Shown here piece by piece: positions 5,917 to 20,721 of a DNA stretch of 64,000 bases. Location: positions 1-64,000 of IMG/VR virus record IMGVR_UViG_3300005435_000020; one strand, given 5' to 3'. Origin of the DNA: a virus. Position 1 is the first letter of the stretch. Each line of letters starts with the position of its first letter. A program made the position numbers and the translations under genes. The notes under the pieces were generated by a model. It saw only the letters and a program-made list of their open reading frames with translations. It was not told the DNA's origin and did not search any database.

Positions 5917-6131
5917 TGGGTGTCTTCAGGATGATCAAGATGTACCGACGCGAGGAAGGCGGGAGGGTAGAAAAAGGGAAACTCTACGTCAGGTATGACA
6001 AAAACGAAGGCTACTCCTATCGTCTCCCCGATGAGACAATGTACACGGACCTCAGCGCCACTAGTGATTATGATGCGGAATACGCGGCAGAAACGATAGC
6101 TGCCGGTGAAGGATGGAAGGAAGAGAGATGA
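5916..6131 (+). CDS. Small protein, possible distant family A member
   Basis: TAATG coupling; LSATSDYDAEYAAETIAAGEGW C-terminus. Confidence 0.6.
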   Translation: MGVFRMIKMYRREEGGRVEKGKLYVRYDKNEGYSYRLPDETMYTDLSATSDYDAEYAAETIAAGEGWKEER

Positions 6132-6421
6132 GACAGACTATAGTCATCAATGATGGTCAATACAGGTGGGGAGCTAGCCGACAACAACTACTCGAAGCCC
6201 TCAATCAAGGGGGATGGTACCACGCTGGCAGCGGCATCTGGCGAGAGCCTGAGCAAGAACCGGATGCCGACCCCGTAGATGCTCCCTACACCATGCTCTG
6301 CGCTAGCTTGGATAGCGTCGCAGGCGAAGGCTCTTCGACACCGATGACTGACGATTTCATGGCAACGTCGAGTCGTTTCACCTACCGCCCAGACCTCGAT
6401 GGTTGGCTCCTGGAAGACTGA
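6128..6421 (+). CDS. Hypothetical protein
   Basis: ATGA overlap with upstream stop. Confidence 0.65.
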   Translation: MRQTIVINDGQYRWGASRQQLLEALNQGGWYHAGSGIWREPEQEPDADPVDAPYTMLCASLDSVAGEGSSTPMTDDFMATSSRFTYRPDLDGWLLED

Positions 6422-6505
6422 ATCGGAAATCGTAATTGTGCCAAATCCGCATTGTTTTGTTCCATAATGGCCTTGGTGTGGTGGACATATAATCAGGAGA
6501 GTATA

Positions 6506-6682
6506 ATGTCCTGGATGGCGAAGAAGACGGAGCACACGGGGACGAAGACCTCTGTGAGAGACGGCGCTTTTCGAGGCAACCGCTTCGAGGCTAAAACCAT
6601 CAGCAAGAAGCTTAGGCGTCGTGTAGGTCATCGCATCGTCAAGTTTTACTTGACAGGGGAGGGAAAGAAGGTTGCTGCTTGA
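6506..6682 (+). CDS. Small basic protein
   Basis: AGGAG RBS; KKTEH.G.K...G..G.RFEAK..SKKLRRR. Confidence 0.65.
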   Translation: MSWMAKKTEHTGTKTSVRDGAFRGNRFEAKTISKKLRRRVGHRIVKFYLTGEGKKVAA

Positions 6683-7284
6683 GGTTACAAAGAGAACAGA
6701 CCCTCGTCTCCTCGATACGATGGCTAAACACTACTCGCAACCAAAAGGCTTTGTCGGCAGGAACATCTGCTATGCCATCACCTATGATGACGTTTATTAT
6801 GGACACATCATCAGCGGCTCTGCCACAAGATTTCTGCCAGGAAGGAATGAGTTTTTCGGCACCACCATAAAAGACCTCAACCACATCATCAATAACATTT
6901 ACTTTCATATTGAGCCACAGAGTGGGAAGTATCCCACCAGAAACTTCTCCTCCCTCGTGATCAAAACCTGGAGAGAGAGCATCCAGGGACTGGCTAGAGA
7001 AGTATGAGGACTATATTATCGGCTTTGAAACCCTTGTGGAGTTGCCGAGGACAGGAGAGTGCTATCGTCGTGATGGCTGGGTTGAAGTAGGCACCACAAT
7101 CGGGTATACCTGCAAAAGAATAGGAGGTGTCGGTACCGATGATTGGACAGGTAAGAGAGTCTGGGATACTAAGAACCTCAGACCTAAGAGAGTATTAGCA
7201 AAGCATTGCCAACATACCCTACACATACCGGCAGCGGCACCTCAGAATCTTGAAATGGCTTATGGAGCTACATATGGAAGTTAG
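6672..7284 (+). pseudogene. DUF4338/Mom-like (GNAT-superfamily) protein split by a frameshift at a GA repeat
   Basis: First half HYS..GFVGR..Y...RNFSS; second frame DWLEKY...FETLVE..R.GECYRRDGW..VGTT.G; junction 6961-7004. Confidence 0.7.
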
Positions 7285-7426
7285 TAAGACGAGGGCTCTT
7301 TGGCTAGCGATAATCACTGCCCAGCTTGTCGGCTTGGCGTTTGTCTGGATGCCAGCTATCGCCCCTGGAGTGCTTGTAGGAGTGCTCATTGTCCTGTTTG
7401 TGATGTTGGTTGTGGTGACGAAGTGA
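7274..7426 (+). CDS. 50-aa two-TM membrane protein
   Basis: Manual: MEVSKTRALWLAIITAQLVGLAFVWMPAIAPGVLVGVLIVLFVMLVVVTK*; GGAG RBS. Confidence 0.65.
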   Translation: MEVSKTRALWLAIITAQLVGLAFVWMPAIAPGVLVGVLIVLFVMLVVVTK

Positions 7427-7725
7427 TGAATAAGCCAACAGACTACTTCGTGGAGTATGCACACCAGGGACTCTATCAATCAGAATTGAAACGTGTTGGT
7501 GGCGTGGAGGATAGCGTAGACCCTAGCCGATTCATGACCTACTGCAACGCCACATCACTCAGGGATGCAAGGAGGATTGCCAACACACGACAAATCAAGA
7601 AGGCTGCTGGCGGCACTACACGTTTCATCTATCATCGCAGCAATATCGAGGAGATTCCTCCTAGTGGGCAATTCGGGACGACAACCTACGAATATGACGT
7701 GGAGTTTGTGGAAGACGTAGATTAG
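7426..7725 (+). CDS. Hypothetical protein
   Basis: TGATG coupling at 7426 (MNKPTDYF...). Confidence 0.65.
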   Translation: MNKPTDYFVEYAHQGLYQSELKRVGGVEDSVDPSRFMTYCNATSLRDARRIANTRQIKKAAGGTTRFIYHRSNIEEIPPSGQFGTTTYEYDVEFVEDVD

Positions 7726-7730
7726 TAATG

Positions 7731-7803
7731 GCCCCTGTAACTCATCGGTTAGAGTAAGGTCCTTATAAGACCTAAGTAGGTGGTTCAATTCCACCCAGGG
7801 GCA
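7731..7803 (+). tRNA. tRNA-Ile, anticodon UAU
   Basis: Full cloverleaf: GCCCCTG/CAGGGGC acceptor, ACTC/GAGT D-stem, AGGTC-CTTATAA-GACCT anticodon arm, GGTGG-TTCAATT-CCACC T-arm, A discriminator; followed by CCG rather than CCA. Confidence 0.92.
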
Positions 7804-7832
7804 CCGTAGTTTGTACCGTAGAAAGGAATGAC

Positions 7833-8537
7833 TTGAGGGTTATTGCTGAGGCAGAGGGTTATCAGTTTGGCATCGGTTGCAATGGAGACGGTAAATATCA
7901 GATACATCTGAGGCGTTTTATTGCTTCTTCCGACACACGAGTATGTTATGTTGGCGAGTGGGAGCCCTATCGTAATGGTACTGGTAGCGATGAAGACGAA
8001 AGCTTGATCATCCGTCGCTTTGCGAAGAGACTTGCTCACGACACGCATCCTACCGCCACTGACCTCTATGAAGCAGCCGTAGATCACATCAACTGGACCC
8101 TCCCTGAGAGTGAGAGGCGCTACGACAAAGAGAAGTATGACCTCCTTAGGAGTGAAGGAAGAGTATTCTGGGCTGGCGTCGAGGATCGTGTCAACGTGAC
8201 GACGTGGAAGCGTGGCACTTACACCATCAGGGACATAGAAGGCGGCTCCGAAGACGTAGTAGGACATGTGTCTAGACATTTCGGAATTACCGGAACCGCG
8301 ACGCGAGGCAAGGTCAAAGACGTCTGGACCATCACCCACTTGCCGACAGGCTTCAAGGTTGGCCCCAAATTTTCCTCCCTTTTCGAGGCTAAACTCCACG
8401 TCATGGCTTTGCAGTCTCCAGGCTTGGACTGGAGCTTCACTGATCCTAAGGCCATCACACCCGCGATGCATAGTCGTGTGGCGGCTATCCGCGATGCTTG
8501 GAATGAGAAACTTTTGCCAGTCACGGAAAAGGGCTAA
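7833..8537 (+). CDS. Hypothetical protein (C-terminal WTITHLPTG motif)
   Basis: 234-aa ORF, GAAAGGA RBS. Confidence 0.7.
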   Translation: MRVIAEAEGYQFGIGCNGDGKYQIHLRRFIASSDTRVCYVGEWEPYRNGTGSDEDESLIIRRFAKRLAHDTHPTATDLYEAAVDHINWTLPESERRYDKEKYDLLRSEGRVFWAGVEDRVNVTTWKRGTYTIRDIEGGSEDVVGHVSRHFGITGTATRGKVKDVWTITHLPTGFKVGPKFSSLFEAKLHVMALQSPGLDWSFTDPKAITPAMHSRVAAIRDAWNEKLLPVTEKG

Positions 8538-8540
8538 ACG

Positions 8541-8762
8541 TTGACTGGTGCGGATTCGGCACAGGAGCTAACTCCGGCGCAGTGGCTGGAGAGTGTGTCG
8601 GCTAGACCCCACAATGTCCTCGATACCGACTGCCTGCTCACGGCTCAGGGACTGCTTGAGGCGACGGAGGAGCAGAGACAAGCAATACCCTACCAGCACC
8701 AGAGCCTCTATCTCTTCTTAGTGGCACTCTTCACCCTCATCCGAAAGATAGCAAGATGGTAA
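8541..8762 (+). CDS. Hypothetical protein
   Basis: Packed ORF. Confidence 0.55.
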   Translation: MTGADSAQELTPAQWLESVSARPHNVLDTDCLLTAQGLLEATEEQRQAIPYQHQSLYLFLVALFTLIRKIARW

Positions 8763-9016
8763 AGACATATCCCGAGGCCCTCGATTTATTCCTTGAGCAG
8801 TGGCCCAACAAGCCCTGGACTGTCGGCGGCGCTAACTATGACAAATTCAATCCCGAGAGGAAGAGTTACCGACACGCCATGGAGGCAGCCCTGGGAGGCG
8901 AGACGGCGGTGAAAATCGAGGGGATGTTCACCAAGGGGACCAGCATTTTGTTTGGGAGCCTGACGTTGAGGCTCCGACGAGGGAAATGGCAAGTCGAGAA
9001 AATCAAGACAGTATAG
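8756..9016 (+). CDS. Hypothetical protein
   Basis: Packed ORF. Confidence 0.65.
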   Translation: MVKTYPEALDLFLEQWPNKPWTVGGANYDKFNPERKSYRHAMEAALGGETAVKIEGMFTKGTSILFGSLTLRLRRGKWQVEKIKTV

Positions 9017-9020
9017 CCTA

Positions 9021-9050
9021 TTGACAAGAACCGAATATTCATGGTAGTAT
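9021..9050 (+). promoter_or_regulatory. Early promoter (repeat family)
   Basis: TTGACA-18bp-TAGTAT within CATGGTAGTATTA. Confidence 0.8.
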
Positions 9051-9083
9051 TATTATAGGTCATGAATTGAGAAGGAGAAGAGC

Positions 9084-9443
9084 ATGGAAACGTCGAGGCC
9101 AACACCTGAAGAAATCCTGAAACTAGCAGCCGAATATGCACCAACATTTTATTTCATAGCCGACAGGTCTGGCCTCCACATCTTGGAGACGGCTGCCGAG
9201 ACCAGCGGGAGCTACTGGTGGTATAGAACCAAGGATGCGGAAGAGAAAGTAGAGGCGGCGATGGAAGCAGCTAGCCTCGCGGCAGACTGCCTCTACTATG
9301 ACATCAATAACCTGCCGGAAAATGACCCAGACATTGCCTTGATCTTCCGTCTCGCCACCTTGGGGGTGGAGGACTTGAAGAAAATCAATGCGAGGCTCTT
9401 CCCATTGAAGTACCTGCGTGATGACGTTTTGGATAAAGGATAA
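9084..9443 (+). CDS. Hypothetical protein
   Basis: AAGGAG RBS. Confidence 0.7.
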   Translation: METSRPTPEEILKLAAEYAPTFYFIADRSGLHILETAAETSGSYWWYRTKDAEEKVEAAMEAASLAADCLYYDINNLPENDPDIALIFRLATLGVEDLKKINARLFPLKYLRDDVLDKG

Positions 9444-9446
9444 AGC

Positions 9447-9797
9447 ATGAAAAGCCTACACACCGCACAACAGCGTGTCCCTCCCCTTGACCACCTTGAG
9501 AAGGTCAAGGACATAATCGCAGACCCTTCGTTGTTCTTGTTTGGCACCGAGACTCCTGGCATCCAATATACGGGTGCCTTGTCTGACACTGGCAAGGCGT
9601 GTCAGCCGACGTCTGAGAATGCGTGTCGCTGGACCCTCCGGGGCGCAGTCCTGAAGACGGCACCCAATCTTGACCAGGCACACGAGACGCTAGTGTGGCT
9701 TGAGGAGACGGCTGCGAAACTTGACCTCGACGCAAACCTCCGCAACCCCATGAGCCACCTGACGGCACTCAAAATCCTCCGTGGGGCTATGCAATAG
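9447..9797 (+). CDS. Hypothetical protein
   Basis: AAAGGA RBS; ACRWTLRGAV motif. Confidence 0.7.
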   Translation: MKSLHTAQQRVPPLDHLEKVKDIIADPSLFLFGTETPGIQYTGALSDTGKACQPTSENACRWTLRGAVLKTAPNLDQAHETLVWLEETAAKLDLDANLRNPMSHLTALKILRGAMQ

Positions 9798-9851
9798 CCA
9801 CGTCAGTATGGTAGACTATCTACGTCGCTATTATGCGGATTTGGCACAGCC

Positions 9852-10313
9852 TTGAGGCGCATAGATTTCCTGGTGCCGTGTGAAGGAGAAGACCACAAGG
9901 TAATACTCGCCGGAAACGGAGCCATGAGGCTTTGCCACCACCCACAGCCACATAGGGAGTTGTGGGTGCAGAAGGAGATGCAGCAGCGCATCCTCAAAGA
10001 CCTCTCGCCTTGTCTGATAGCTTTCCTCCATACGCATACAGACTATGTGCCCTACACGGCTGAGGAGCAGCTTCCAAACTATCTCCGATTTGCGATGGGG
10101 AATAGCATCAGGTGGCGCAAGAATATCCTCCGGTTTACCTACGGCGATAATATCTACAAGAGGACAAGGATTCGTCGGCATCCTGTAGTGCAAGATGGAG
10201 ACGGCTATTCGTTAGTAAATAAGGCAGAGACGTATCAAGCAGAAGTCGTGATGGCACCGGGGCACACCTACCTCGTGGCGGGTGGCAAGCCGATTATTGG
10301 GATACATTGGTAG
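9852..10313 (+). CDS. C-H-H-C domain protein, family Z (divergent member)
   Basis: VPCEGEDHKV...LCHH...DLSPC. Confidence 0.65.
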   Translation: MRRIDFLVPCEGEDHKVILAGNGAMRLCHHPQPHRELWVQKEMQQRILKDLSPCLIAFLHTHTDYVPYTAEEQLPNYLRFAMGNSIRWRKNILRFTYGDNIYKRTRIRRHPVVQDGDGYSLVNKAETYQAEVVMAPGHTYLVAGGKPIIGIHW

Positions 10314-10321
10314 GAGAGACA

Positions 10322-10636
10322 TTGCATACTATCCTTGAGTCCATCCAAGCAGAGCAGAAGACCCTCCGAGACAGACTTGCCCTCCTCGATGAGATGGAGA
10401 GGATGATCCTCGCAGCCGACACGCCGCAGCCACCGAAGGTCCCCACCTACACCTTCGAGAGTGATAGCCGCCTTGGGCTCTTCCACCAGACGTGGCTTGT
10501 CAACGACGAGTGGCGCTGCACCTGCGAAGGCTTCACCTACCACGGCCACTGCAAGCACATCAGAAACGTCGAATCCGACGTCAGGATGGAGAAACTTCGC
10601 CGTGATCTCCGTATCGTGGCTGCTACCCGAAACTAG
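10322..10636 (+). CDS. SWIM zinc-finger protein with N-terminal coiled coil
   Basis: WRCTCEGFTYHGHCKHI = CxC..CxH; AGGAG before TTG 10322. Confidence 0.8.
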   Translation: MHTILESIQAEQKTLRDRLALLDEMERMILAADTPQPPKVPTYTFESDSRLGLFHQTWLVNDEWRCTCEGFTYHGHCKHIRNVESDVRMEKLRRDLRIVAATRN

Positions 10637-10643
10637 CAGCATC

Positions 10644-10672
10644 TTGTAGTATCACCATATTGGTGGTATACT
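10644..10672 (+). promoter_or_regulatory. Promoter of the MoxR operon
   Basis: TTGTAG-17bp-TATACT with TG extension. Confidence 0.6.
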
Positions 10673-10706
10673 TATCTAATAGTCTGGTATAAGAAAAGGA
10701 GCTAGG

Positions 10707-11891
10707 TTGAGCAGTCCCACACACGTCGAAGCCGTTGCCCTCGCGGCGCAGGCGAGGATTCCGATTATCGCCTGGGGGGAGCCTGGTATCGGCAAGACCA
10801 GCGTGGTGTATGCACTGGGCAGGAAGCTGCAAAGGCCCACCCACGTCTTCGTGGGCTCCTACCACGAAGCGCAAGACCTCGGCTGGCCTGTCCTCGAAGA
10901 TAGGCCAAGGAAGCAGCGCAAGATCACGCAACGTCGCGTCTCACAGACGGGGCCAAGGCGCATGAAGCAGGCCATTGCCGAGTCTAAGATGCTTGTCAAG
11001 GTGGCACCGAAGTGGGGCATCGAGATTGTCGAGTTTGGTGATGGCATCGTCTTCCTTGATGAGTTTTCCAACACGGAACCGGCTGTGCAAGCCGTGATGC
11101 TCCAGCTTCTCTTCGAGGGAAAGCTTGGCGACTTGCAGTTTCCTAGCTCCGTGAGCTATATCGCGGCAGCTAACTCGGCAGACCAGGCTGCCAATGGCTT
11201 CAACCTTAGCTGGCCCCTCAAGAACCGCCTTGTCCACATCAACTGGGGGCTTGACATCGAGGGCTGGGTGCAGGGTGTCCTCTCGGATTTCCCCGCCGTG
11301 GAGTTTCCTATTCTTCCCGACAAGTGGCAAGAACACGCATTCTCCGAGAAGGCGCTGGTGGCCTCCTTTATCCAAAAGAAGCGTGACCAACTTCTCAGGA
11401 TGCCCACTGATCCGTCAGTGAATGCCTACCCGACGCCTCGAAGCTGGCACCACCTCGCCATCCCGCTGCTGGCGGCTTGCAAGTCCATCGGCAGGGACCA
11501 CAGCGACGACTTGACGGTGATGCTGCTTGATGGGTGTGTCGGCAACGCCTCAGGCAACGAGTTTCGGAGCTACGTCAAGGCGCTGGACCTGCCGGACCCC
11601 GAAGTGCTCCTCGCCAATCCCGCAGAGTGGTCCGTGTGGGCCAAAGGGAAGCGTGGAGACCAAATCCACGCTTCCCTCAACACCATGGCGACGGCAGTGA
11701 GGGGCAACAATACGAAGCCTCGCTGGGAATCCGGCTGGGAAATCGTCATCAGGGCTGCGAAGGAGGGCCACAAGCCGCCTGCACTCCTGGCGGGGAATGT
11801 CCTGGCAGGTAAGAAGCCCACCAACGACGCAAAGTACCCAGATGTCGAGGACATCTTCGGGAAGGTCAATCAACTAGCGAAGGCAAGCTAG
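10707..11891 (+). CDS. MoxR/dynein-related AAA+ ATPase
   Basis: Walker A GEPGIGKT, Walker B IVFLDE, sensor-1 AAAN, arginine finger KNRL, PTPRSW. Confidence 0.9.
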   Translation: MSSPTHVEAVALAAQARIPIIAWGEPGIGKTSVVYALGRKLQRPTHVFVGSYHEAQDLGWPVLEDRPRKQRKITQRRVSQTGPRRMKQAIAESKMLVKVAPKWGIEIVEFGDGIVFLDEFSNTEPAVQAVMLQLLFEGKLGDLQFPSSVSYIAAANSADQAANGFNLSWPLKNRLVHINWGLDIEGWVQGVLSDFPAVEFPILPDKWQEHAFSEKALVASFIQKKRDQLLRMPTDPSVNAYPTPRSWHHLAIPLLAACKSIGRDHSDDLTVMLLDGCVGNASGNEFRSYVKALDLPDPEVLLANPAEWSVWAKGKRGDQIHASLNTMATAVRGNNTKPRWESGWEIVIRAAKEGHKPPALLAGNVLAGKKPTNDAKYPDVEDIFGKVNQLAKAS

Positions 11892-11895
11892 TATC

Positions 11896-11928
11896 GAGGG
11901 GGCAGGTTCCGAAAGGGCCTGCCCCTTC
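11896..11928 (+). promoter_or_regulatory. GC-rich hairpin with GAAA tetraloop (weak terminator or mRNA stabiliser)
   Basis: GAGGGGGCAGGTTCC-GAAA-GGGCCTGCCCCTTC; no poly-T tail. Confidence 0.65.
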
Positions 11929-11945
11929 TGGTATGAGGACACAAC

Positions 11946-12320
11946 ATGATCCCCTACAAAGCCGATGTACCAGCCTGCTGTCCTCGCCACGAGGGTGTCA
12001 TCACGCTAGACACGGGTGTGGTTGCCGCCTCACCTGTGCCCTTACTGGCAGAGAACCTACACATCCTCGATATCTTCCCCGACGCAGATGTATGCGAATG
12101 TGTTATCGCAACGGCAATAACAATCAATATAATGGACACAAAGCATGCGACGATGTATGAAATGAGAAACCTGACAGTTGCTGTGTTTTTCCAGGATGGT
12201 GTGTGGCTTGCAAGGGTTGTCTCGAATTTAGGCAAAGACAGTCAGAAATACCACATACTGGAACACGACATGGAGGGCCGACGCCTCCTCACCTACCAAC
12301 CAGCGAGATATACACAATGA
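11946..12320 (+). CDS. Family Z protein
   Basis: CCPRH...LDIFPDADVCEC. Confidence 0.85.
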   Translation: MIPYKADVPACCPRHEGVITLDTGVVAASPVPLLAENLHILDIFPDADVCECVIATAITINIMDTKHATMYEMRNLTVAVFFQDGVWLARVVSNLGKDSQKYHILEHDMEGRRLLTYQPARYTQ

Positions 12321-12691
12321 ATACCATCACGGTGTCTTGCTTCTGCACACACCAAGGAGCAGACTATCATCCCCCAACTATCATCGAGAAACGAAAAATA
12401 GTCGCGGAGGGCCATCCTGGGCTCAAAGAAAGCCTCGCCTATCTCGAAATCTACCCACAGGCAGACGTGGACCTCTGCACCCTCGCCATCTCCGTCATCA
12501 TGAAACGCTGGAGATCAGTCTGCCAGGCGGGGAAGTACATGAAGAAATACGACGACAGGACACCGTATCGGGTCATCCTCATCAAGACTGAAGACGACGA
12601 AGGCTACGACGTCAGGCTTTCCTACGTCTACACGAAGTCCTGCATGAAAAACAATAACATCCCGAAGATTACGTGGAAGCATCATCCATGA
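12317..12691 (+). CDS. Family Z protein
   Basis: ATGA coupling; CFCTH...GHPGL...LEIYPQADVDLC. Confidence 0.85.
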   Translation: MNTITVSCFCTHQGADYHPPTIIEKRKIVAEGHPGLKESLAYLEIYPQADVDLCTLAISVIMKRWRSVCQAGKYMKKYDDRTPYRVILIKTEDDEGYDVRLSYVYTKSCMKNNNIPKITWKHHP

Positions 12692-13047
12692 CAACCGTCT
12701 ACATCCCCCCTATCTGCGGCTGTCACGAAGGCAGCACCGTTGTCCTTGATGGCAAGGTTACGCATACGAGTTGTCCTACACTCCTGGAGGAGTTGGCAGT
12801 GCTAGACATCTACCCGCAGGCAGATGTGAGCCTCTGCGCCGTTTCCGTGATAGAAATACTCAAGGGCTGGGGCAGCTACTACCCAGGTCTGAGGAGGACC
12901 AGGGTAGGAGGCGCATTCAAAAGCATAGCCATGGATATCATGACGCCTTGGGATGACTTCGACAAGGACAATGTTGTGCAATCAAGGAATGTCTTTGTGG
13001 CGTTTCGAGATGTGAACACGAGACCTCTATGGCATGGCATGGAGTAG
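12688..13047 (+). CDS. Family Z protein
   Basis: ATGA coupling; PICGCH...LDIYPQADVSLC. Confidence 0.85.
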   Translation: MTTVYIPPICGCHEGSTVVLDGKVTHTSCPTLLEELAVLDIYPQADVSLCAVSVIEILKGWGSYYPGLRRTRVGGAFKSIAMDIMTPWDDFDKDNVVQSRNVFVAFRDVNTRPLWHGME

Positions 13048-13063
13048 GTGTAGGAAATATCCG

Positions 13064-13525
13064 ATGAAACGAGACCCAGAGAAAGCCATCGTGATACCGT
13101 CGCAATGCGAGTCCCACATGGGTGGCGGGACAGTGTTGTATGAGGGTAAGGTACTCTCGACGTGTCACGAAGGACTGGAGCAAGAGCTAGGGATAGAGGA
13201 TATCTACCCAGACGCCGATATCAGCAAATGTGCCCTCGCCGTCAAGGCTGCACTTGCTGCTCCCTGCGACTATTATCGAAGCAGAAACGTTTTCACCTTC
13301 ATTCAAGGAGACATCGCCGTGAAGGTCTCCTTCAGAGAGGTGACACTCGCATTTCTCGCTGAAGTGGAGATACAAGAGCTACTACCGCTGGATTACTACA
13401 GAAACATACTAGGTAGTATGTACCACACTGACTCTAAACGGTTAGCGTTACTTTCCGAGGTATTCAATGATCATTTTCCTTCCCCCGATATGCGACAAAC
13501 ACAAGGGCCTCACAAAAATCGTTGA
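13064..13525 (+). CDS. Family Z protein
   Basis: QCESH...CHEGL...EDIYPDADISKC. Confidence 0.85.
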   Translation: MKRDPEKAIVIPSQCESHMGGGTVLYEGKVLSTCHEGLEQELGIEDIYPDADISKCALAVKAALAAPCDYYRSRNVFTFIQGDIAVKVSFREVTLAFLAEVEIQELLPLDYYRNILGSMYHTDSKRLALLSEVFNDHFPSPDMRQTQGPHKNR

Positions 13526-13850
13526 TGGCGTGATCACAGCGAGTGACCACGATGGTCTGAAAACCGAAGTCGATGCCTACGAGATATTCGACGGGGTGAT
13601 GCCCACTCGATGCACCCTCGCCACGAAGGTGGTGCTCAAAAACCCTCCCGACGACATGTACCCAATGAGAACCTACACATCCTATTATCTAGGATATATC
13701 TACACGATAAGCTACCATTACGACGGAGAAAAAGACATTTATCACACGAAGGTGACCATCTCCACGGAGTACTACGACTGTTGTGGAGGCGGATACCCCG
13801 ATTCTATCCAGATAATCCTGTCGCAGGATAGTCGTGATTATCTGAGCTAG
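13467..13850 (+). CDS. Family Z protein
   Basis: PICDKH...DHDGL...YEIFDGVMPTRC. Confidence 0.8.
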   Translation: MIIFLPPICDKHKGLTKIVDGVITASDHDGLKTEVDAYEIFDGVMPTRCTLATKVVLKNPPDDMYPMRTYTSYYLGYIYTISYHYDGEKDIYHTKVTISTEYYDCCGGGYPDSIQIILSQDSRDYLS

Positions 13851-13885
13851 ATTTTCCAAATTTTTAGAAGGTTTTGGAGTAAGGA

Positions 13886-14230
13886 ATGGTCATTCCCTAT
13901 CCAACAAGGATATTCATGGACAACTGTGACGCGGAGTGCCATGAGTTGCATAATATTGGCACTCCATACGTCTGGTCTTCTCACCACGCGGGTCTACTTG
14001 AAGACGCAAAAATCTTTGATCTCTTCCCAGACGCCAATGTGTGCCTCTGCGCCAAGCTCCACGCTGTTGCTTCGCAGCGGGAGACGTGGTGGGGGTTCTA
14101 CCACGAGACAAAGCTATCGTCTCCGCTAATCATGTACAGGCTCAGTAGTGAGATTTTTTTGTCTGCTTGGATTGATACTACGGAGGGATTTCATGTGATG
14201 CAGAGGGAGAGTACCGGGAAGATTATATGA
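13886..14230 (+). CDS. Family Z protein
   Basis: CDAECH...HHAGL...FDLFPDANVCLC. Confidence 0.85.
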   Translation: MVIPYPTRIFMDNCDAECHELHNIGTPYVWSSHHAGLLEDAKIFDLFPDANVCLCAKLHAVASQRETWWGFYHETKLSSPLIMYRLSSEIFLSAWIDTTEGFHVMQRESTGKII

Positions 14231-14550
14231 GTGACTTCATGCTCATCGTGAAAGACTGCTGCGGCGAGGACCACACCCTCCATGCGCTTCAGAATGGCTA
14301 TCCCTTTTATAAAAATAAGTGGCACGATAACCTTCACACCGATATTACAGTGCTGGGCCTTTACCCGGATGCCGACGTTTCAAACTGCGCCATCGTTGCC
14401 TACGCAGTCACACAAAAATGGAGTCATGTTGACGAGGGCTATCCGCTGTGGCATCCATTCTCTTATTACCTTTTTGTAGGTAGAGTGGTCATTGATGTCG
14501 AGCAGGACAGGTACGGCAATCTTCAAGCAGAAGTGAGCCGGATGAGGTGA
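14227..14550 (+). CDS. Family Z protein
   Basis: CCGEDH...WHDNL...LGLYPDADVSNC. Confidence 0.85.
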   Translation: MSDFMLIVKDCCGEDHTLHALQNGYPFYKNKWHDNLHTDITVLGLYPDADVSNCAIVAYAVTQKWSHVDEGYPLWHPFSYYLFVGRVVIDVEQDRYGNLQAEVSRMR

Positions 14551-14894
14551 GCACTCAAATCTCTAGAGTAATAGTCTGTGATTGTGGTGATCAAGACCAC
14601 ACAATTTCATTGGAACATGGTAGACTAATATCAGGCCACCACGACATCCTAGGAGAGTTGGAGGTGCTGAGGGTCTACCCGCTGGCAGACATCAGCCTCT
14701 GTGCTGATTATGCACTGGCCCACGTAGCGTGTGGTTTTGGGAAGGAGCCGTGGGTACCGGGTTGGGAGTTACGTGACGTGACACACCTATGGGAACATCG
14801 ACAGAACCGTAGGAAGTGGATATTCGACTTGACATTTCGAGAAGAAAACACGACGACGAAAGTGTATAGCGCAAGGAAATTTTCATGGGAGTAG
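14547..14894 (+). CDS. Family Z protein
   Basis: CDCGDQDH...HHDIL...LRVYPLADISLC. Confidence 0.85.
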   Translation: MSTQISRVIVCDCGDQDHTISLEHGRLISGHHDILGELEVLRVYPLADISLCADYALAHVACGFGKEPWVPGWELRDVTHLWEHRQNRRKWIFDLTFREENTTTKVYSARKFSWE

Positions 14895-16168
14895 CCGCCT
14901 GGAAAGACATCTTCGATGCCAGCGTTTTGAGGCTGTGCAGGACACACCCCTACGTGTCCTCGACGGCGCTTGCCCTGGTCCCTGTGGAGAGGCCAGAGAG
15001 CAATACCTTGTCCACAGATATGTATGGCAGGGTATACGTCGGCACCCAACGCCAATGGGACGTCGAGGGGATGTCCACGATTATCTACCATGAGCTTTGG
15101 CATCTCCTTTTCCAGCATCACAAGAGGGCTGAATCGTTGGTGCCCTTCGAGAAGACCATCGCCAACATCGCCATGGACATGGAGATCAATGGCACTGAAA
15201 AGGTAGGCATCCACGGAGAGATCAATAGCGGAGCTTCGCATCTCAAGTTTCCCTTCGAGGTATTCACGCCGAGACATTTTGGCCTCGATGAGGGGCTAAT
15301 GATGGAGCAGTATTATGAAGAGTTGCTCCAGCAGGCCAAGGAGCAGCAGGATGGCGAAGGTGGAGGCCAAGGCCAGAGTGAAGGCCAGCAGGGCAAGGGC
15401 AAGGGCCAGCCACACGTAGGCTTCGGTGACTGCGGCTCCTGCGCTTCTGGTGAGCCGCAAGAAGGCGATGAGCCTTCACCCGAGAATTCCGACACGCCTG
15501 GGATGACTGCGAAGGAGTTGGAAGACCTCGCCAAATCGACGGCGAGAGAGATCAGCGAAGCATCGAAGTCCCGAGGCAACATCCCCGGATGGATGAAGCG
15601 TTGGGCCGACGATATGTGCAAGACGAAACACGACTGGAAGCCTGAGTTGAGGGCCACCATACGCAATAGCATGACGACGGTGACAGGCAGGGGCATCCCC
15701 TCCTACCAGAGGCCACACCGCAAGCAGCAGCTTCACGGCAGGGTGCTCTTGCCTGGTCAGCGCCAGCCTGTCATCAAGGTTGCCGTCGTCTGCGACACGT
15801 CTGGTTCCATGTCTGAGAAGCAGATGGGGCAGAGCCTCGCGGAAGTCGAAGGCGTCTTACAATTCACGAAACAGGTCACGGTATTTGCCACGGATAGCGC
15901 AGCATCGACGGCACAGAAGGTGATGAGGCGCAGCCAGGTAAATCTTATGGGTGGTGGCGGCACCGATATGGGTGTCGGCATCCAGGCTGCTGCTGACCAT
16001 ACACCAACACCCGACTTGATCATCTGCCTGACAGATGGCATCACGCCTTGGCCTGCGAAGGCTCCCAAGGGCATCAAGACGATTATCGGCTTGATAGGTG
16101 AGGGCTCAACCTATTATCGTCTCCCTGAGTGGGCTACCATAGTCAACATCCCACTCGATGAAGAATGA
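14885..16168 (+). CDS. Putative metallopeptidase + vWA domain protein (DUF2201-type), MoxR partner
   Basis: HELWH and NIAMDMEIN; Gly/Gln linker; MIDAS DTSGS, GGGGTDM, LTDG. Confidence 0.9.
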   Translation: MGVAAWKDIFDASVLRLCRTHPYVSSTALALVPVERPESNTLSTDMYGRVYVGTQRQWDVEGMSTIIYHELWHLLFQHHKRAESLVPFEKTIANIAMDMEINGTEKVGIHGEINSGASHLKFPFEVFTPRHFGLDEGLMMEQYYEELLQQAKEQQDGEGGGQGQSEGQQGKGKGQPHVGFGDCGSCASGEPQEGDEPSPENSDTPGMTAKELEDLAKSTAREISEASKSRGNIPGWMKRWADDMCKTKHDWKPELRATIRNSMTTVTGRGIPSYQRPHRKQQLHGRVLLPGQRQPVIKVAVVCDTSGSMSEKQMGQSLAEVEGVLQFTKQVTVFATDSAASTAQKVMRRSQVNLMGGGGTDMGVGIQAAADHTPTPDLIICLTDGITPWPAKAPKGIKTIIGLIGEGSTYYRLPEWATIVNIPLDEE

Positions 16169-16494
16169 AAGTGACGGTTATCGGCTGCGGTGACAAGCCA
16201 CATTATCTCTATAAGGATGGTGACAACGCTTATCAGTGCCCAGCACACGCAGAATTCAAAAGGGAGCTTGAGGTACTTTCCGTGTATCCGAAAGCAGACA
16301 TCTGCTTCTGCGTGGCGGCATCTATCGCGGCAGATAGGTACAAACTCTACTTGAAGAATGCAGGAATACCCAACACCATGGAATACGGCTCCCTGAATAC
16401 AGGAGTCGGTGAGTATGAGTGCAGCGTGGAGCAGCACCTTGGCGGTGACCTCACCGTGAGATTTGAGAGGAGAGTGAAGTTTGCCTTACCTTGA
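16165..16494 (+). CDS. Family Z protein
   Basis: GCGDKPH...AHAEF...LSVYPKADICFC. Confidence 0.85.
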   Translation: MKVTVIGCGDKPHYLYKDGDNAYQCPAHAEFKRELEVLSVYPKADICFCVAASIAADRYKLYLKNAGIPNTMEYGSLNTGVGEYECSVEQHLGGDLTVRFERRVKFALP

Positions 16495-16774
16495 CGTCAA
16501 TGAGATACGCAGGCAGGTGTATCTCGCAAGGAAGGAGTTGGTCCTCAAGCACAAATGGGACATCAGCATTTCCACAGGTCATCTGAAGTTTGTTCACGGC
16601 TACAACTTCCCAATGCGTGGCGACGTAGAGATACACGTCACTCGGGAAGAGGAGAGATGGCGCATCGACTTCTTCGTAAATGGTGTGAAGGAAGGCCCAT
16701 CCGACTATGTGGATACAAGCCTCGATGACTACATAGAGGTACTAAGACTAGCCCAGAAATACATCCTCTACTAG
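16481..16774 (+). CDS. Hypothetical protein (non-family gene inside the array)
   Basis: GAGGAG RBS; lacks the family Z motif. Confidence 0.7.
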   Translation: MPYLDVNEIRRQVYLARKELVLKHKWDISISTGHLKFVHGYNFPMRGDVEIHVTREEERWRIDFFVNGVKEGPSDYVDTSLDDYIEVLRLAQKYILY

Positions 16775-17091
16775 TGGCGGATACTTTCTACCTATGGGTG
16801 AATGGTTGTGGTGATCAGGCACACCTAATCCGTGTCAATGGAGATAAGGCACACTCCAGTCACCATGATCTGGAGCATGAAGTGTCTGCGCTTGAGATAT
16901 TTGATGACGCAGATATATCCGTGTGCTGCCAGGCGTGGATGCTCTTCACGAGGGCTACACAACCAGCCTATACGATGCCGATTGGTCCTAAACTTACGTA
17001 TGGCTACGGCAATCACGACTACACGGTGACCCATTATGATGTTGTGAGGACAGGCGGCGTTACCTGGACCTTCACACCTCATCCTAAGTAG
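16774..17091 (+). CDS. Family Z protein
   Basis: GCGDQAH...HHDLE...LEIFDDADISVC. Confidence 0.85.
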   Translation: MADTFYLWVNGCGDQAHLIRVNGDKAHSSHHDLEHEVSALEIFDDADISVCCQAWMLFTRATQPAYTMPIGPKLTYGYGNHDYTVTHYDVVRTGGVTWTFTPHPK

Positions 17092-17096
17092 AAGAG

Positions 17097-17459
17097 TTGG
17101 TAATGATAGTAAGAGAGAAGATATATGTCCACGGGTGTTGTGGCAAGGTCCACCACCTCCGAGTGAGGGATGACCATTCCATTGTCTGCGATGAACACGA
17201 CATCAAGCGTGACGTCGAAGCCTTGGAGCTATTCCCCGACGCCGACGTTTCCTTATGCAGCAGGGCCTACGTCTACTACAAGGTCTATAGGGACATCAGG
17301 GATGAGTTTCTGATGCCTGAGCAGCACCTACGCATAGCCAGGCTTGGTAATCATCTCCACGTCTACGACTATAATAGAACAAGACCAGTAATTCTACCGG
17401 CAGCGGGTGTCATGGACAACTGGTTTGGAAACTATACGGTGGCCAATGAAACTCCCTGA
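17097..17459 (+). CDS. Family Z protein
   Basis: GCCGKVHH...EHDI...LELFPDADVSLC. Confidence 0.85.
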   Translation: MVMIVREKIYVHGCCGKVHHLRVRDDHSIVCDEHDIKRDVEALELFPDADVSLCSRAYVYYKVYRDIRDEFLMPEQHLRIARLGNHLHVYDYNRTRPVILPAAGVMDNWFGNYTVANETP

Positions 17460-17886
17460 AGAGATTATTGTGGAGCATTGCGGAGAGTGGGGCACCAAGC
17501 ATACGCTTCGTCTTACTGACGGAGCCTACACCTCTGAGTATCACTGCGACTTGCGAGACTGCGTGAGTATGCTGAGCATCTTCGAGGATGCCGACACACC
17601 ATTCTGCGCTATTGTGGTAAAATTCTACCTTGAATACATGATAAACTTGCCGTTTGAGCCTAGAGGCACTTGCGATAGGCTCCAGGGTAGTAAAAGATTT
17701 AGGTATTACATACTGTCGACGACGGATCGTCATAGGATTGTGTTCCACGACGTGAGGTATTCTGACCCAGTGTTGGGCACCACAATACAAAGAGCCATCG
17801 AGTTGCCTGGCGGCATGTACCACGATTGCTGGCTAGCACATCAAAAAGGCCTCATGTCGATAGCGGAGAGTATGGGGCTGCTATGA
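17446..17886 (+). CDS. Family Z protein
   Basis: HCGEWGTKH...YHCDL...LSIFEDADTPFC. Confidence 0.85.
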   Translation: MKLPEEIIVEHCGEWGTKHTLRLTDGAYTSEYHCDLRDCVSMLSIFEDADTPFCAIVVKFYLEYMINLPFEPRGTCDRLQGSKRFRYYILSTTDRHRIVFHDVRYSDPVLGTTIQRAIELPGGMYHDCWLAHQKGLMSIAESMGLL

Positions 17887-18227
17887 AAGAGTCCATCTAC
17901 GTCAGCGACATCGTGGACCCTGCCGACGTCATCTTGGTGGAGGATGGTCACTTCCAGTCCCTCTACGTCGGTGGTGTGGAGGAGGAGCTTTCCTTACTTG
18001 AGCTATATCCAAATGCAGACATATCTATATCCACGAAAGTAGCCTACACCTACCGACTCAACAGGCGAGATGGTTTTATGAGTGAGATGGAAGCCTGGCT
18101 AGGAGGGCATCTCTATGTAGTCTACGGAGCACCGAATGGCAGAGCCCCTCACCACAACCAAGGCTTCGAGATCACCAGGGTCGCTGACACTAACTGGCTC
18201 TTCATCCCCGTGGTGATCACAGTATGA
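17883..18227 (+). CDS. Family Z protein lacking the metal ligands
   Basis: LLELYPNADISIS retained; C/H ligands absent. Confidence 0.8.
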   Translation: MKESIYVSDIVDPADVILVEDGHFQSLYVGGVEEELSLLELYPNADISISTKVAYTYRLNRRDGFMSEMEAWLGGHLYVVYGAPNGRAPHHNQGFEITRVADTNWLFIPVVITV

Positions 18228-18230
18228 CGA

Positions 18231-18596
18231 ATGTATAAGTGTGTGGTTTGGTGTGACGGCGAAACCCATTGGTGTGTCTATGATTATAAATCCAAGAGGT
18301 TCTACGACAACCATCACAACATCGAGAATGAGTTGCTCCTGTGGGAAATGAGTGAAGGCAGCGCAGACATCTCCCTCTGCACAAGGGTAGCCCTCTATTT
18401 TATCCTTCAATATGTAGGCGGCTGTCGGGGCTACCCAGAATGGATGCTGACGAAAAAGACTGCGCCACCTTTCAACATATCAAACCTTGGGGAGTTGTGG
18501 TATGTGAGCCTCGTCAAGGATAATCCCCCCGTGGAATTCTTCTCGACGTGGCCTTGGTCAGAGGAAAAGACGAAGAGGGTTTTCGAGGTACCGTGA
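18231..18596 (+). CDS. Family Z protein
   Basis: WCDGETH...HHNIENEL...SADISLC. Confidence 0.85.
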   Translation: MYKCVVWCDGETHWCVYDYKSKRFYDNHHNIENELLLWEMSEGSADISLCTRVALYFILQYVGGCRGYPEWMLTKKTAPPFNISNLGELWYVSLVKDNPPVEFFSTWPWSEEKTKRVFEVP

Positions 18597-18973
18597 TCAA
18601 GAAGTTTATTGTGCAGTGTGTCGATGAAGTCCACAGGTTTGTCTATTATAAGGATAGGTTCTATAGTCTCCATCACAATATCGAGAATGAACTTTCGATA
18701 CTGGAAATCTATCCGGCGGATATTTCTGTGTGTACTGCTGGGGCTGGGTGGTTCCTTTCAACAGAACCTCGATACACACTGATCCAAGATAATTTCTATG
18801 AGAGCACTGGCCACATCGTGAGCTTTCACACCTACACAAAGTACATTCGAGATGACCTCTTCATCGTCGGCTATAATACTAAACACACGTATAGCTCAAC
18901 GACAGCGAAAAGTCCAGTCCCACACTGGCCTTGGTCAGACGAGGAAACCAGGGAGATTTTCAAGCTCCCTTGA
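18593..18973 (+). CDS. Family Z protein
   Basis: GTGA coupling; QCVDEVH...HHNIENELSILEIYPADISVC. Confidence 0.85.
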   Translation: MIKKFIVQCVDEVHRFVYYKDRFYSLHHNIENELSILEIYPADISVCTAGAGWFLSTEPRYTLIQDNFYESTGHIVSFHTYTKYIRDDLFIVGYNTKHTYSSTTAKSPVPHWPWSDEETREIFKLP

Positions 18974-18998
18974 CACCTAGAAATGAGTATGGTAGTAT
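18970..18998 (+). promoter_or_regulatory. Early-type promoter (repeat family)
   Basis: TTGACA-17bp-TAGTAT; overlaps upstream stop. Confidence 0.85.
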
Positions 18999-19026: not shown

Positions 19027-19356
19027 ATGTCCAAGAAAAATACGAGGGACTATTTCCACATCCTCTACCAGACGGAGCAGGGTGCCGTGACGAGGAGTGC
19101 CCACACGCGAGAGTATGCAGACAGGCTCCTCAGTAAACTTCGAGAGGAACACGGCGACTGTCCTGGCAGACTAGCGTTACAAACGTGGTCAGTCTCGGAT
19201 GAGACTGGCCCCGTGAAGATGCTCTCCGAGGAGATCATCGAAGCCTTCTCCGGGTGGGAAGCAGCCAAGCCCATCGAGAAGAAGCCGACACCGCGGCCCA
19301 TCAGGTCACGTTTCTCAGCGATGGCAGAGTGGCCCACGAGAAAGGCGAAGGCGTGA
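19027..19356 (+). CDS. Hypothetical protein
   Basis: GGGAG RBS before ATG 19027. Confidence 0.7.
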   Translation: MSKKNTRDYFHILYQTEQGAVTRSAHTREYADRLLSKLREEHGDCPGRLALQTWSVSDETGPVKMLSEEIIEAFSGWEAAKPIEKKPTPRPIRSRFSAMAEWPTRKAKA

Positions 19357-20219
19357 TACCGGCGACAAGCATTCAAGGCAGCCCCTCCGAGTATGTCGGA
19401 ATGTTCCTCGACAGGTATCGTGACCTCCAGAAATCGCAAAACACCATCGCCTCCTATTGTGCCGATTTGGCACAGCTCATGGAGTTTTCTCCGTCGTGTC
19501 GCCTCTCCTACCAAGACGCAGACAGATTCGTGGCGTGGCTCTCACAGCAAGGGCTCAGTGCTGCCAGCATCAAAAGAAAGCTCTCCGCGTGTCGGAGCTT
19601 CTTCACCTACTTGCTACGCCAGGGCATCGTTGACGTCAATCCTTTCCTTGGCGTCGAGACACCGGCACTGCCGCAGAGGCTTCCCAAGCTCCCCTCTCCC
19701 GAGAAGGTCAAGGAATGCCTCGATGCGATGGGAGACGACTACCTGAGCACACGAGACGGCGCATTGATTGCCCTTCTCTTCGGCTCAGGTGCCAGGATCA
19801 GCGAAGCACTGAGCCTCCACACGACGCACCTTGACCTCAACAAAAATGAGATACGTGTCGTCGGCAAGGGGAACAAAGAGAGGGTGCTAGTGCTCTCAGA
19901 TGGGGCAAGAAGGCACCTAGAAGGCTATCTGAGGGTCAGACCCTCCTCAGACACGACGGCATTATTCCTGACCCTCCAAGGGGCATCCTTGACGCGAAGG
20001 GGCGCAGAGTATGCCATCGAGAGGAGGTTTGCGTGTGTCGGAGAGGAAGTCAGCCCACACCAGTTGCGCCATAGCTTCGCATCAACGGTACTTGACAGCG
20101 GCGCAGACATCAAAATAATCCAGGAGCTTCTCGGACACTCAAGTGTCGCTGTAACGGGGAGATACCTGTCGGTGAGTGTCGGCAGGCTCCATCAAGCAGT
20201 AGCAAAGGCATTCGAGTGA
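19353..20219 (+). CDS. Tyrosine recombinase, XerC/XerD-like
   Basis: SAM-like N-domain; GARISE, GKGNKER, HQLRHS, LGHSS, TGRY catalytic set. Confidence 0.92.
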   Translation: MIPATSIQGSPSEYVGMFLDRYRDLQKSQNTIASYCADLAQLMEFSPSCRLSYQDADRFVAWLSQQGLSAASIKRKLSACRSFFTYLLRQGIVDVNPFLGVETPALPQRLPKLPSPEKVKECLDAMGDDYLSTRDGALIALLFGSGARISEALSLHTTHLDLNKNEIRVVGKGNKERVLVLSDGARRHLEGYLRVRPSSDTTALFLTLQGASLTRRGAEYAIERRFACVGEEVSPHQLRHSFASTVLDSGADIKIIQELLGHSSVAVTGRYLSVSVGRLHQAVAKAFE

Positions 20220-20476
20220 CAAGCACCGTGACGTGTACCCATTGCCACAAAGGCACCGTGACCCAGCTCATCGGTGGTTATGAGGCTGTCCTCTGCCCGG
20301 AGTGCAAGCATGTCATCTGCCCAGCCTGCGGCGAAGCTAACCTCAGGATAGTTGCGAGGATACCACAAGTATACGGCATCCTCTGGTGTACCTGCGGTGG
20401 TCCTCATATGCTCTACGCCAACGAAGAGGCCATCAATAAGTCCCTCGTCGCAGACGCCGTGGGCGTGTCGGCGTGA
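20216..20476 (+). CDS. Multi-CxxC zinc-ribbon protein
   Basis: CTHC, CPEC, CPAC, CTC. Confidence 0.7.
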   Translation: MTSTVTCTHCHKGTVTQLIGGYEAVLCPECKHVICPACGEANLRIVARIPQVYGILWCTCGGPHMLYANEEAINKSLVADAVGVSA

Positions 20477-20721
20477 TCATCAGCCTGCTCCTCGTGTGTC
20501 CACACTGCCAGAAGACCATTGACCCTGGAAAGTTTCGCCTGACGTGGGACCTCAACGTGGATGAAAACTTCATGTTCATCCCGGAAGGGGAGAAAAATGC
20601 CCTCCTCGCTGGATTCTTCCTGAGCCTGAATGGTGAGTTGAAGAAAGGGGTGGGGTGCTGCCCAGACTGCCTGGGCATGGCAAAGATGAAAGACTTGTCA
20701 GAATCTGATCTACTCGGGTAG
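20473..20721 (+). CDS. Zinc-ribbon protein
   Basis: CPHC...CPDC. Confidence 0.7.
   Translation: MIISLLLVCPHCQKTIDPGKFRLTWDLNVDENFMFIPEGEKNALLAGFFLSLNGELKKGVGCCPDCLGMAKMKDLSESDLLG

Follow-up and report, generated by a model that had tools for sequence, protein, structure and literature searches.

The window is the whole stretch of 64,000 nucleotides that was analysed and it belongs to a phage record of 101 kb that is 66% complete. Judging by its promoters and closely coupled genes, the block at 9084-18973 of this uncultured tailed phage is probably a single early operon. The features of this block are as follows.

9021..9050, + strand: strong sigma-70-type promoter, the last copy upstream of the block (TTGACA-N15-TGG-TAGTAT pattern)
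9084-9443 and 9447-9797, + strand: two small ORFs, function not assigned, the first genes of the promoter-to-promoter block (no Pfam/PADLOC match)
9852..10313, + strand: candidate 16th member, very divergent, of the head-domain family, 153 aa (HMM 7.4 bits; hhalign P 0.0022)
10307..10636, + strand: SWIM-like zinc-finger protein, 109 aa (C-x-C-x7-C-x-H; Pfam SWIM E 0.0015)
10707..11891, + strand: MoxR-type AAA+ ATPase, 394 aa (Pfam AAA_5; PHROG 1297)
11946-12320, 12317-12691, 12688-13047 and 13064-13525, + strand: head-domain paralogs, run on the MoxR side (HMM)
13467-13850, 13886-14230, 14227-14550 and 14547-14894, + strand: head-domain paralogs, the same run continued (HMM)
14885..16168, + strand: HExxH metallopeptidase-like and vWA protein, 427 aa (Pfam DUF2201_N, DUF2201)
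16165..16494, + strand: head-domain paralog directly downstream of the vWA gene (HMM)
16481..16774, + strand: 97-aa ORF without the head domain, inside the array (ORF list; no Pfam/HMM match)
16774-17091, 17097-17459, 17446-17886, 17883-18227, 18231-18596 and 18593-18973, + strand: six head-domain paralogs (HMM)
18970..18998, + strand: next copy of the strong promoter, at the end of the block, its -35 hexamer overlapping the stop codon of the last paralog

The promoter pattern search gave eight matches, all on the + strand, where 0.02 were expected, and no copy was found inside the block. Since the block is flanked by two of these strong sigma-70-type copies it is probably carried on one early transcript. 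The 16 small ORFs named in a sequence-only reading of this DNA were all present on the + strand in the ORF list, as were the MoxR gene and the HExxH-vWA gene. That reading also described the small genes as mostly translationally coupled and this holds, because the majority of the junctions are overlaps of 1-14 nt; one overlap is 59 nt and the other junctions are gaps of 3-54 nt. The SWIM-like gene at 10307-10636 and the ORF outside the family at 16481-16774 had been overlooked. The SWIM-like protein has the CxCxnCxH signature and scores 18.5 bits with the Pfam SWIM model, under the cut-off of 19.6. The idea that SWIM is regularly a fourth component was dropped because at other viral MoxR/vWA loci it was seen in 4 of 1153 near ORFs and in 5 of 2548 far ORFs.

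MoxR and the peptidase-vWA protein form a pair that is widespread in phages, and the papers searched gave no function for it that is established by experiment. Read from the translations, the motifs of both proteins are intact. The MoxR protein scores 26.8 bits with AAA_5 (cut-off 22) and matches PHROG 1297 with an E value of 1e-37, and it carries the Walker A motif GEPGIGKT at residues 24-31 and the Walker B motif IVFLDEF. The vWA protein scores 106.3 bits with DUF2201_N (cut-off 23.2) and 63.3 bits with DUF2201 (cut-off 26.4), and its HELWH and MIDAS (DTSGS) motifs span residues 69-73 and 304-308, respectively. Among 30 homologs, the window's protein included, H69, H73, H78, D304, S306, S308, T360, and D384 are invariant and E70 is kept in at least 90%.

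The small genes share an N-terminal head of about 60 aa with a C..H..H..C pattern, and this head was found in 15 tandem, mostly overlapping genes at 11946-18973, of which 8-9 lie between MoxR and vWA and 6-7 downstream of vWA. The array had been put at 16 members. In a leave-one-out HMM test the 15 heads scored 23-52 bits with E values of 3e-6 to 4e-15 at Z=1000, and these 15 stand, while gene 9852 with its 7.4 bits is a marginal member; hhalign against the head family gave it P 0.0022 and a probability of 13% with 4/4 Cys/His positions in register. No extra copy of the head domain was found outside the array in the 101-kb record. The paralog at 16165 has its closest relative in 14547, the gene directly upstream of vWA. 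The deviations from the Cys/His pattern pointed out earlier in three of the genes are real: 11946 is without the third ligand, 12688 has replaced the third-ligand His by Cys, and in 17883 all four ligands are gone together.

The tails behind these heads are a different matter. Among the 15 paralogs, 69 of 105 head pairs are similar as against only one of 105 tail pairs, and that pair is 18231/18593, the last two genes, exactly the exception made when the downstream halves were called unalignable by eye. A frame-shift origin of the tails was ruled out because no frame-shifted homology was found among them. We also considered a DGR-diversified array of binders, whose marks are template/variable repeat pairs and a reverse transcriptase, and rejected it because the 101-kb record (66% complete) has no RVT_1 match and the tails share no nucleotide repeats. 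Similarly, a RiPP-type precursor array, for which a short unstructured leader, Cys/Ser/Thr-rich cores, and adjacent modification enzymes are the marks, was rejected because the head is confidently folded, the tails are 41-85 aa long and aromatic-rich, and the block has no modification enzyme.

The AF2 model of the head reached a pLDDT of 83 and a pTM of 0.72 with 59 sequences; with 16 sequences the pLDDT over the head was about 90. The predicted fold has three beta-strands and two helices, in which a Cys and a His would sit on a beta-hairpin knuckle, the second His before helix 1, and the last Cys at the start of helix 2. In the 59 sequences the four positions are kept in 57/59 (C), 54/59 (H), 45/59 (H, with the His shifted in 10 more), and 58/59 (C). 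This Cys/His set is probably a zinc site, and 17883 lost all four ligands at once as would be expected if the ligands form one site. The only head residues conserved across the family are C, H, G, H, L, and C. It had been proposed that the Asp of a conserved 'AD' is the docking residue, and this part of the proposal fails because P-x-A-D-[IV]-S is limited to the clade of this phage and no acidic residue is conserved there family-wide.

The head is a new Cys/His domain that is unnamed in Pfam, PHROG, NCBIfam or the PDB. All 16 paralogs were scanned against Pfam and PHROG with no meaningful match, neither NCBIfam (one paralog) nor PADLOC (two paralogs) gave a match, and the ESM Atlas gave none above noise. 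The region (by megablast) and one paralog (by tblastn) had no match among 50,697 phage records. When the full-length alignment of the paralogs was used as a profile to search 1.84 billion representatives exhaustively, it returned only the phage's own proteins and one repetitive false match, and the clusters of the paralog matches were singletons or the same phage re-assembled. Word-indexed searches returned only four matches with the 59-sequence head profile and only itself with the tail of 17446. By structure, the best Foldseek match in the PDB was weak (E 0.3), as were the best matches of the head models in wider fold searches (Z 2.8 and 3.1) and in BFVD (E 0.36), and weak matches of a sequence profile to RCC1/propeller-blade-like hairpins in the PDB were regarded as noise. 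Thus, fold searches with two head models gave no convincing analogue from which a docking mode could be deduced.

Although the full-length paralog alignment had retrieved only the phage's own proteins, a wider head profile, which was used for the linkage census, found 45 head-domain ORFs at 27 of 80 viral loci of the clade in which MoxR precedes vWA. All 45 share the strand of the operon, and nearly every one sits in the interval from MoxR to vWA or right after vWA. Bacterial loci were reached by searching genome contigs with a vWA alignment, a single vWA protein as query having retrieved none, and at 60 of 80 of them, mostly in Actinomycetota, the head domain adjoins the MoxR/DUF2201 pair. 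The genomic co-occurrence that the sequence-only reading had proposed as a check was therefore strongly positive, and the similar motif that it placed beside actinobacterial AAA/DUF2201 pairs is indeed there. The linkage spans distant lineages with a vWA identity of 26-38%. In three whole actinobacterial genomes (8-11 Mb) each DUF2201 gene of the close clade has a head-domain copy within 3 kb, and of the 10 head-domain copies seven sit at DUF2201 loci and three do not. The actinobacterial three-gene set occurs at two loci per genome, as seen in the Streptomyces genome examined, and 21 of the 42 bacterial members scanned have ankyrin repeats behind the head.

A second phage, L151, has a 12-copy array that is likewise arranged as MoxR-[n]-vWA-[m]; of the 13 head-domain genes in its record, one is not beside DUF2201. 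In the tree this array and the L151 array each form their own clade (99/99) and therefore the amplifications were independent. The nearest vWA/MoxR relatives (43-45% identity; the Firmicutes-type loci L164, L165, and L110) carry an unrelated gene in the third position, and so the head domain is one of several alternative partners and not an obligate one. Since it recurs beside MoxR/DUF2201 in phages and in actinobacteria, the head domain is most likely an exchangeable third part of the machine. Its functional link to the MoxR/peptidase-vWA machine is well supported by this comparison of loci.

On balance we favour, with only modest confidence, the reading that the three proteins are the parts of a protein-remodelling machine, namely, a MoxR AAA+ ATPase, a vWA co-factor fused to a HExxH peptidase-like domain (DUF2201), and a head-domain protein serving as adaptor. 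The third component usually comes in 1-4 copies, and in this lineage tandem duplication has raised it to 15 with the heads kept and the tails unrelated. The head would be the common handle that engages the vWA/MoxR pair and the tail would give each copy a different partner, so that early in infection the machine may act on various proteins, probably of the host, by remodelling or cleaving them. A constant handle joined to a variable specificity module had been suggested before; the ankyrin repeats of the bacterial members lend it support, and the 'AD' docking has to be given up. The tails are short and orphan, and we count this against a tail-binding role. Prediction of a complex of vWA (30-row alignment) and head (59-row alignment) gave a score of 0.06, which is below the mark and speaks neither for nor against binding. 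A more ambitious form is a programmable ATP-driven unfoldase/protease, in which one MoxR hexamer and one peptidase-vWA protein would be aimed at up to 15 host proteins by interchangeable adaptors docking via a zinc-bound handle, and of which Actinobacteria would use an ankyrin-tailed version, perhaps against phages. This we regard as possible but rather doubtful.

The paralogs may instead be the clients of the pair, which would either cleave the head as a pro-domain and so release 15 tail effectors or load or remove the metal of the Cys/His site in the manner of NorQD, CoxDE or the chelatase type. Many characterised MoxR-vWA systems, such as the NorQ/D, CoxD/E, and ChlI/D families, act on metal centres. 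The head is a probable metal site, the HExxH of the vWA partner is intact, and the linkage data (27/80 viral and 60/80 bacterial loci) fit clients equally well. Pairs of a zincin peptidase and a small variable precursor attached to MoxR-vWA systems are also on record (Kaur et al. 2020, PMC7159879). However, the ankyrin repeats behind the bacterial heads resemble binders and not released effectors, the junction of head and tail shows no conserved cleavage motif, and the head is, by its model, a folded domain rather than a linear leader. Overall, we consider it somewhat unlikely that the paralogs are clients.

It has been proposed for the group 2.2 jumbo phages that MoxR and metallopeptidase-vWA pairs serve in virion assembly (Iyer et al. 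2021, PMC7824862), and tail development of the Acidianus two-tailed virus needs a MoxR-vWA system (cited in PMC7824862). The pair in this phage could then be a virion-assembly chaperone or protease and the paralogs assembly factors or scaffolds. This is improbable because the operon lies in a run of small genes on the + strand with host-type sigma-70 promoters, the virion head genes are at least 45 kb away on the opposite strand, and the three-gene set is kept in actinobacterial chromosomes where there is no virion to build. Orphan small genes abound in phage early regions and the tails have no relatives, and thus independent small early proteins might have expanded around an unrelated pair. 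Such a coincidental neighbourhood is very unlikely given the direct, same-strand adjacency at 27 viral and 60 bacterial loci across a vWA identity of 26-38% and the whole-genome specificity in the three actinobacterial genomes.

A conserved, lineage-amplified partner family is the first concrete handle on what the MoxR/peptidase-vWA pair acts on or through, and the actinobacterial orthologues are tractable for genetics. The same pair has been reported from group 2.2 jumbo phages, in a paper that describes no third component (Iyer et al. 2021, PMC7824862). Compared to the pair of the N4 gp24/gp25 type (PHROG 1297 and 1314; AAA_5 and DUF2201_N/DUF2201), the two proteins, their domains, and their intact motifs are the same. 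However, in the N4-like, distant clade vWA precedes MoxR, the two are directly adjacent, and none of 80 loci has a head-domain gene, whereas in this phage MoxR precedes vWA and the paralogs lie between the two genes and after vWA.

The closest known theme is that of the MoxR-vWA ternary conflict systems with their VMAP, iSTAND, FtsH, and beta-propeller classes (Kaur, Burroughs, Iyer, Aravind 2020, PMC7159879). The MoxR and vWA core is common to both, as is a conserved third protein with a variable region proposed for specificity, and enrichment in Actinomycetota and the involvement of a peptidase are also alike. A conserved third gene is linked to the pair here as it is there (27/80 viral and 60/80 bacterial loci). 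Here the third component has a Cys/His domain of about 60 aa that differs in size from VMAP-C, with predicted 3 strands and 2 helices against 7 strands and 6-7 helices (PMC7159879), a comparison made by description only. No Pfam, NCBIfam or PADLOC model matched the head domain, the VMAP model being outside the set used. The system here is phage-encoded, its vWA protein carries the peptidase as an N-terminal HExxH domain, and its third component is multiplied up to 15-fold, whereas the ternary systems vary the vWA effector tail instead.

Two further parallels are worth drawing. The MIDAS of Midasin/Rea1 pulls on the UBL-domain handles of Ytm1 and Rsa4. The likeness is conceptual, in that an AAA+ motor with a MIDAS/vWA part engages, or here would engage, factors via a small handle fused to a variable binder, and no homology of the handles was detected (best fold match Z 3.1). 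The machine here also has a peptidase domain, and its docking on the handle is what we infer. If the adaptor reading is true, the machine would be a bacterial and viral analogue of eukaryotic handle-based AAA+ targeting. In poxviruses, the Ank/PRANC-F-box and BTB-kelch families combine a constant docking box with a variable binder and feed host ubiquitin ligases. They are alike in their tandem, lineage-specific expansion and in a small constant module with the rest differing, but in the present case the phage itself encodes an ATP-driven machine, and the module shared by the paralogs stands at the N-terminus and probably binds metal. The MoxR-vWA ternary theme is thus known, and its third component in this phage is a previously unnamed head domain that has been amplified in the lineage.

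All of the open reading frames named in the sequence-only reading are present in the window. The genes of the locus are:

10307-10636: SWIM-like gene, directly upstream of the MoxR gene (Pfam E 0.0015, slightly below the cut-off)
10707-11891: MoxR-type AAA+ ATPase (AAA_5 above the cut-off; PHROG 1297)
11946, 12317, 12688, 13064, 13467, 13886, 14227, 14547, 16165, 16774, 17097, 17446, 17883, 18231 and 18593: starts of the 15 head-domain genes, each used below as the name of its gene
14885-16168: DUF2201_N and DUF2201 protein, the HExxH-vWA protein
16481-16774: open reading frame of 97 aa, inside the array and not of the family

The ATPase has intact Walker A and Walker B motifs. The DUF2201 protein was aligned with 29 homologs of 36-43% identity; both histidines of HExxH and, in the MIDAS, D304, S306, S308, T360 and D384 are invariant there. 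An HMM of the head, the N-terminal C..H..H..C domain that the paralogs have in common, was built from their first ~70 residues and used to search the 101-kb record in six-frame translation; it picked up these 15 genes and no other, and leave-one-out scores were 23-52 bits for all 15. The array had been described as having 16 members, and this holds for these 15 genes but not for 9852, which scored 7.4 bits. When 9852 was compared with the 15-member profile by hhalign the P value was 0.0022 and the probability 13%, and the alignment matched each of the four Cys/His positions to its counterpart; 9852 is possibly a relic of the head family and we do not count it as a member. The description of constant N-termini followed by unalignable tails was confirmed, including the exception made for the last pair, because BLAST detected similarity between heads in 69 of the 105 pairs and between tails in one (18231/18593). 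No hidden frame-shifted homology of the tails was found when the 3' halves were translated in all three frames. Most junctions in the array are overlaps of 1-14 nt, and where genes do not overlap the gaps measure 3-54 nt. One overlap is exceptionally long for the array, namely the 59 nt (13467-13525) by which 13064-13525 runs into the start of 13467-13850 in another frame.

The pattern TTGACA-N13-16-TGRTAGKAT has eight near-identical, promoter-like matches in the window as against 0.02 expected by chance, all in its first 19 kb:

569, 2030, 3727, 4336, 4990, 5562, 9021 and 18970, + strand: promoter-like elements

The eight elements, spanning 569-18998, divide the early region into units; a single tRNA-Ile gene (anticodon TAT, 7731-7805) also lies in this region. 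Since a pattern search of the window gave no copy between 9051 and 18969, and since the last copy overlaps the stop codon of the final paralog, the genes from 9084 to 18973 would most simply form one unit of ~9.9 kb read by the host sigma-70 RNA polymerase. If they are read in this way they would be early genes, as judged from the consensus alone.

The phage is a tailed phage, and its record has a length of 100,907 bp (CheckV completeness 66%), of which the window is the initial 64 kb. Its structural genes lie beyond the window:

73-99 kb of the record, minus strand: terminase, portal, prohead protease and major head protein

The terminase is at most 22-28% identical to that of any deposited phage. 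DnaB, ribonucleotide reductase, RNA ligase and a serine integrase are encoded within the window. Besides the serine integrase, which is large (47613-49274), the phage has a second recombinase, of the XerC/D-like tyrosine type, directly after the array (19254-20219). Just 3' of the latter are two coupled small open reading frames of 86 and 82 aa (20216-20721) that are CxxC-rich and zinc-ribbon-like. A 2318-aa open reading frame on the minus strand (60220-64000, in the record to 67176) comes after one of 863 aa that has no PHROG match; the two are probably tail or injection proteins.

No sequence model covering the head was found in Pfam, PHROG, NCBIfam, PADLOC or PDB, and no structural analogue was found among solved or predicted viral structures (Foldseek E at least 0.3, VIA Z at most 3.1). 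AlphaFold2 with a 16-sequence alignment modelled residues 1-74, for the most part at a pLDDT of 86-95, but not the tail. With the head alone and 59 sequences (pLDDT 83, pTM 0.72) the prediction was three strands followed by two helices. In this model a knuckle is made by the first Cys, at the end of strand 1, and the first His, on strand 2 just past a tight turn; the second His is ahead of helix 1 and the last Cys starts helix 2. The four columns are occupied by C in 57, H in 54, H in 45 and C in 58 of the 59 sequences, and 10 further sequences have the third-column His displaced by four residues. All four Cys/His are lost jointly in 17883, the pattern that would be expected, from the alignment, if they form a single metal site, and we infer that the head binds zinc. 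The Asp of P-x-A-D-[IV]-S had been put forward as the docking residue, a proposal that we do not retain as the motif is not conserved beyond the clade of the window phage. An acidic residue in helix 1 is commoner than this Asp; among the bacterial heads it is a Glu without exception.

When the full-length paralog alignment was used as a profile to search 1.84 billion representative proteins exhaustively, the only genes recovered were those of the window phage itself, and the head family came to light only through gene neighbours. With 30 vWA homologs as query, 80 viral loci were collected from the clade in which MoxR precedes vWA, as in the window. The window-only HMM gave weak matches there (E 0.02-5) to + strand open reading frames adjoining MoxR or vWA, with the same C..H..G..H..C pattern. 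After the HMM was rebuilt over three rounds it matched 45 open reading frames in 27 of the 80 loci at E < 1e-3, all on the operon strand and nearly all between MoxR and vWA or directly 3' of vWA. No copy of the domain was found in 80 loci of a more distant clade in which vWA precedes and abuts MoxR (22-28% identity). In a scan in which each prokaryotic species was represented by a single genome, 80 bacterial loci were obtained, most of them from Actinomycetota; the domain adjoins the pair in 60 of them, usually directly upstream of MoxR and sometimes as 2-4 tandem genes. The statement in the sequence-only reading that a similar motif occurs beside actinobacterial AAA/DUF2201 pairs was correct. 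The linkage was also checked beyond single loci, in three complete genomes of actinobacteria (8-11 Mb) and a phage record of 94% completeness. Of their 23 head matches, 19 are no more than 3 kb from a close-clade DUF2201 gene, and each such gene has at least one match; the predicted linkage to MoxR/vWA loci therefore stood. Three actinobacterial head-domain genes have no adjoining DUF2201 (G002:C1:2415122 in one genome, G003:C1:593641 and 602271 in another).

The same component has been amplified in a second phage. In L151 (IMGVR_UViG_3300037483_000594), a 170-kb contig, the MoxR/vWA pair is surrounded by 12 head-domain genes (8665-17522). The vWA protein of L151 is 28% identical to that of the window phage, and in both phages the copies flank vWA on both sides. 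In a maximum-likelihood tree of 59 heads the 15 of the window are one clade (99/99), in which adjacent genes tend to be sisters, and the 12 copies of L151 are a separate group; the branches are long (median 0.84 changes per site). Since the two phages are unrelated, the separate groups mean that amplification into the same layout was independent, and this speaks against drift and for selection on the number and diversity of copies. The ten downstream tails of L151 are mutually similar, and a 13th copy lies 75 kb off on the opposite strand (G005:C1:85654-85824, in the whole-record scan).

Only close relatives share what follows the head; elsewhere these regions are unrelated. Ankyrin repeats follow the head in 21 of 42 bacterial members. 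In phages the tails measure 100-300 aa and are orphans. Those of the window, 41-85 aa long, are likewise orphans; they are rich in aromatic residues and differ widely in charge. A search with one of them, that of 17446, found no relatives. On a Streptomyces chromosome (L207) the gene next upstream of the head-ankyrin gene in a MoxR/DUF2201 operon encodes an LRR_6 repeat protein (1790-3019). The gene accompanying the pair is not always of the head family. In four loci (L088, L093, L097 and L104) the MoxR-vWA gap holds a different family of ~240 aa, and three loci of the Firmicutes type (L164, L165 and L110), which have some of the vWA proteins nearest to that of the window, contain another. These two families (~230-245 aa) are unrelated, giving at least three unrelated classes in this position. 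The third component thus seems to be replaceable, the head-domain protein being one of several alternative partners.

Together, MoxR, DUF2201 and the head-domain protein are supported as a functional three-part system. A role of the pair in virion assembly, an idea of Iyer et al. (PMC7824862), fits poorly, because the array is apparently early and host-promoter-driven and because actinobacteria carry the operons on their chromosomes. A serious rival is that the head-domain proteins are clients, themselves processed or metal-loaded by the pair. To judge by the characterised MoxR-vWA pairs, and by the ternary systems that Kaur et al. describe (PMC7159879), the vWA domain would capture a partner and MoxR would remodel it, with the fused HExxH domain of the DUF2201 protein adding proteolysis. 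In the reading that we favour, the head would serve all copies as a docking handle and the tail would confer specificity, since the tails found in bacteria are typical binding modules.
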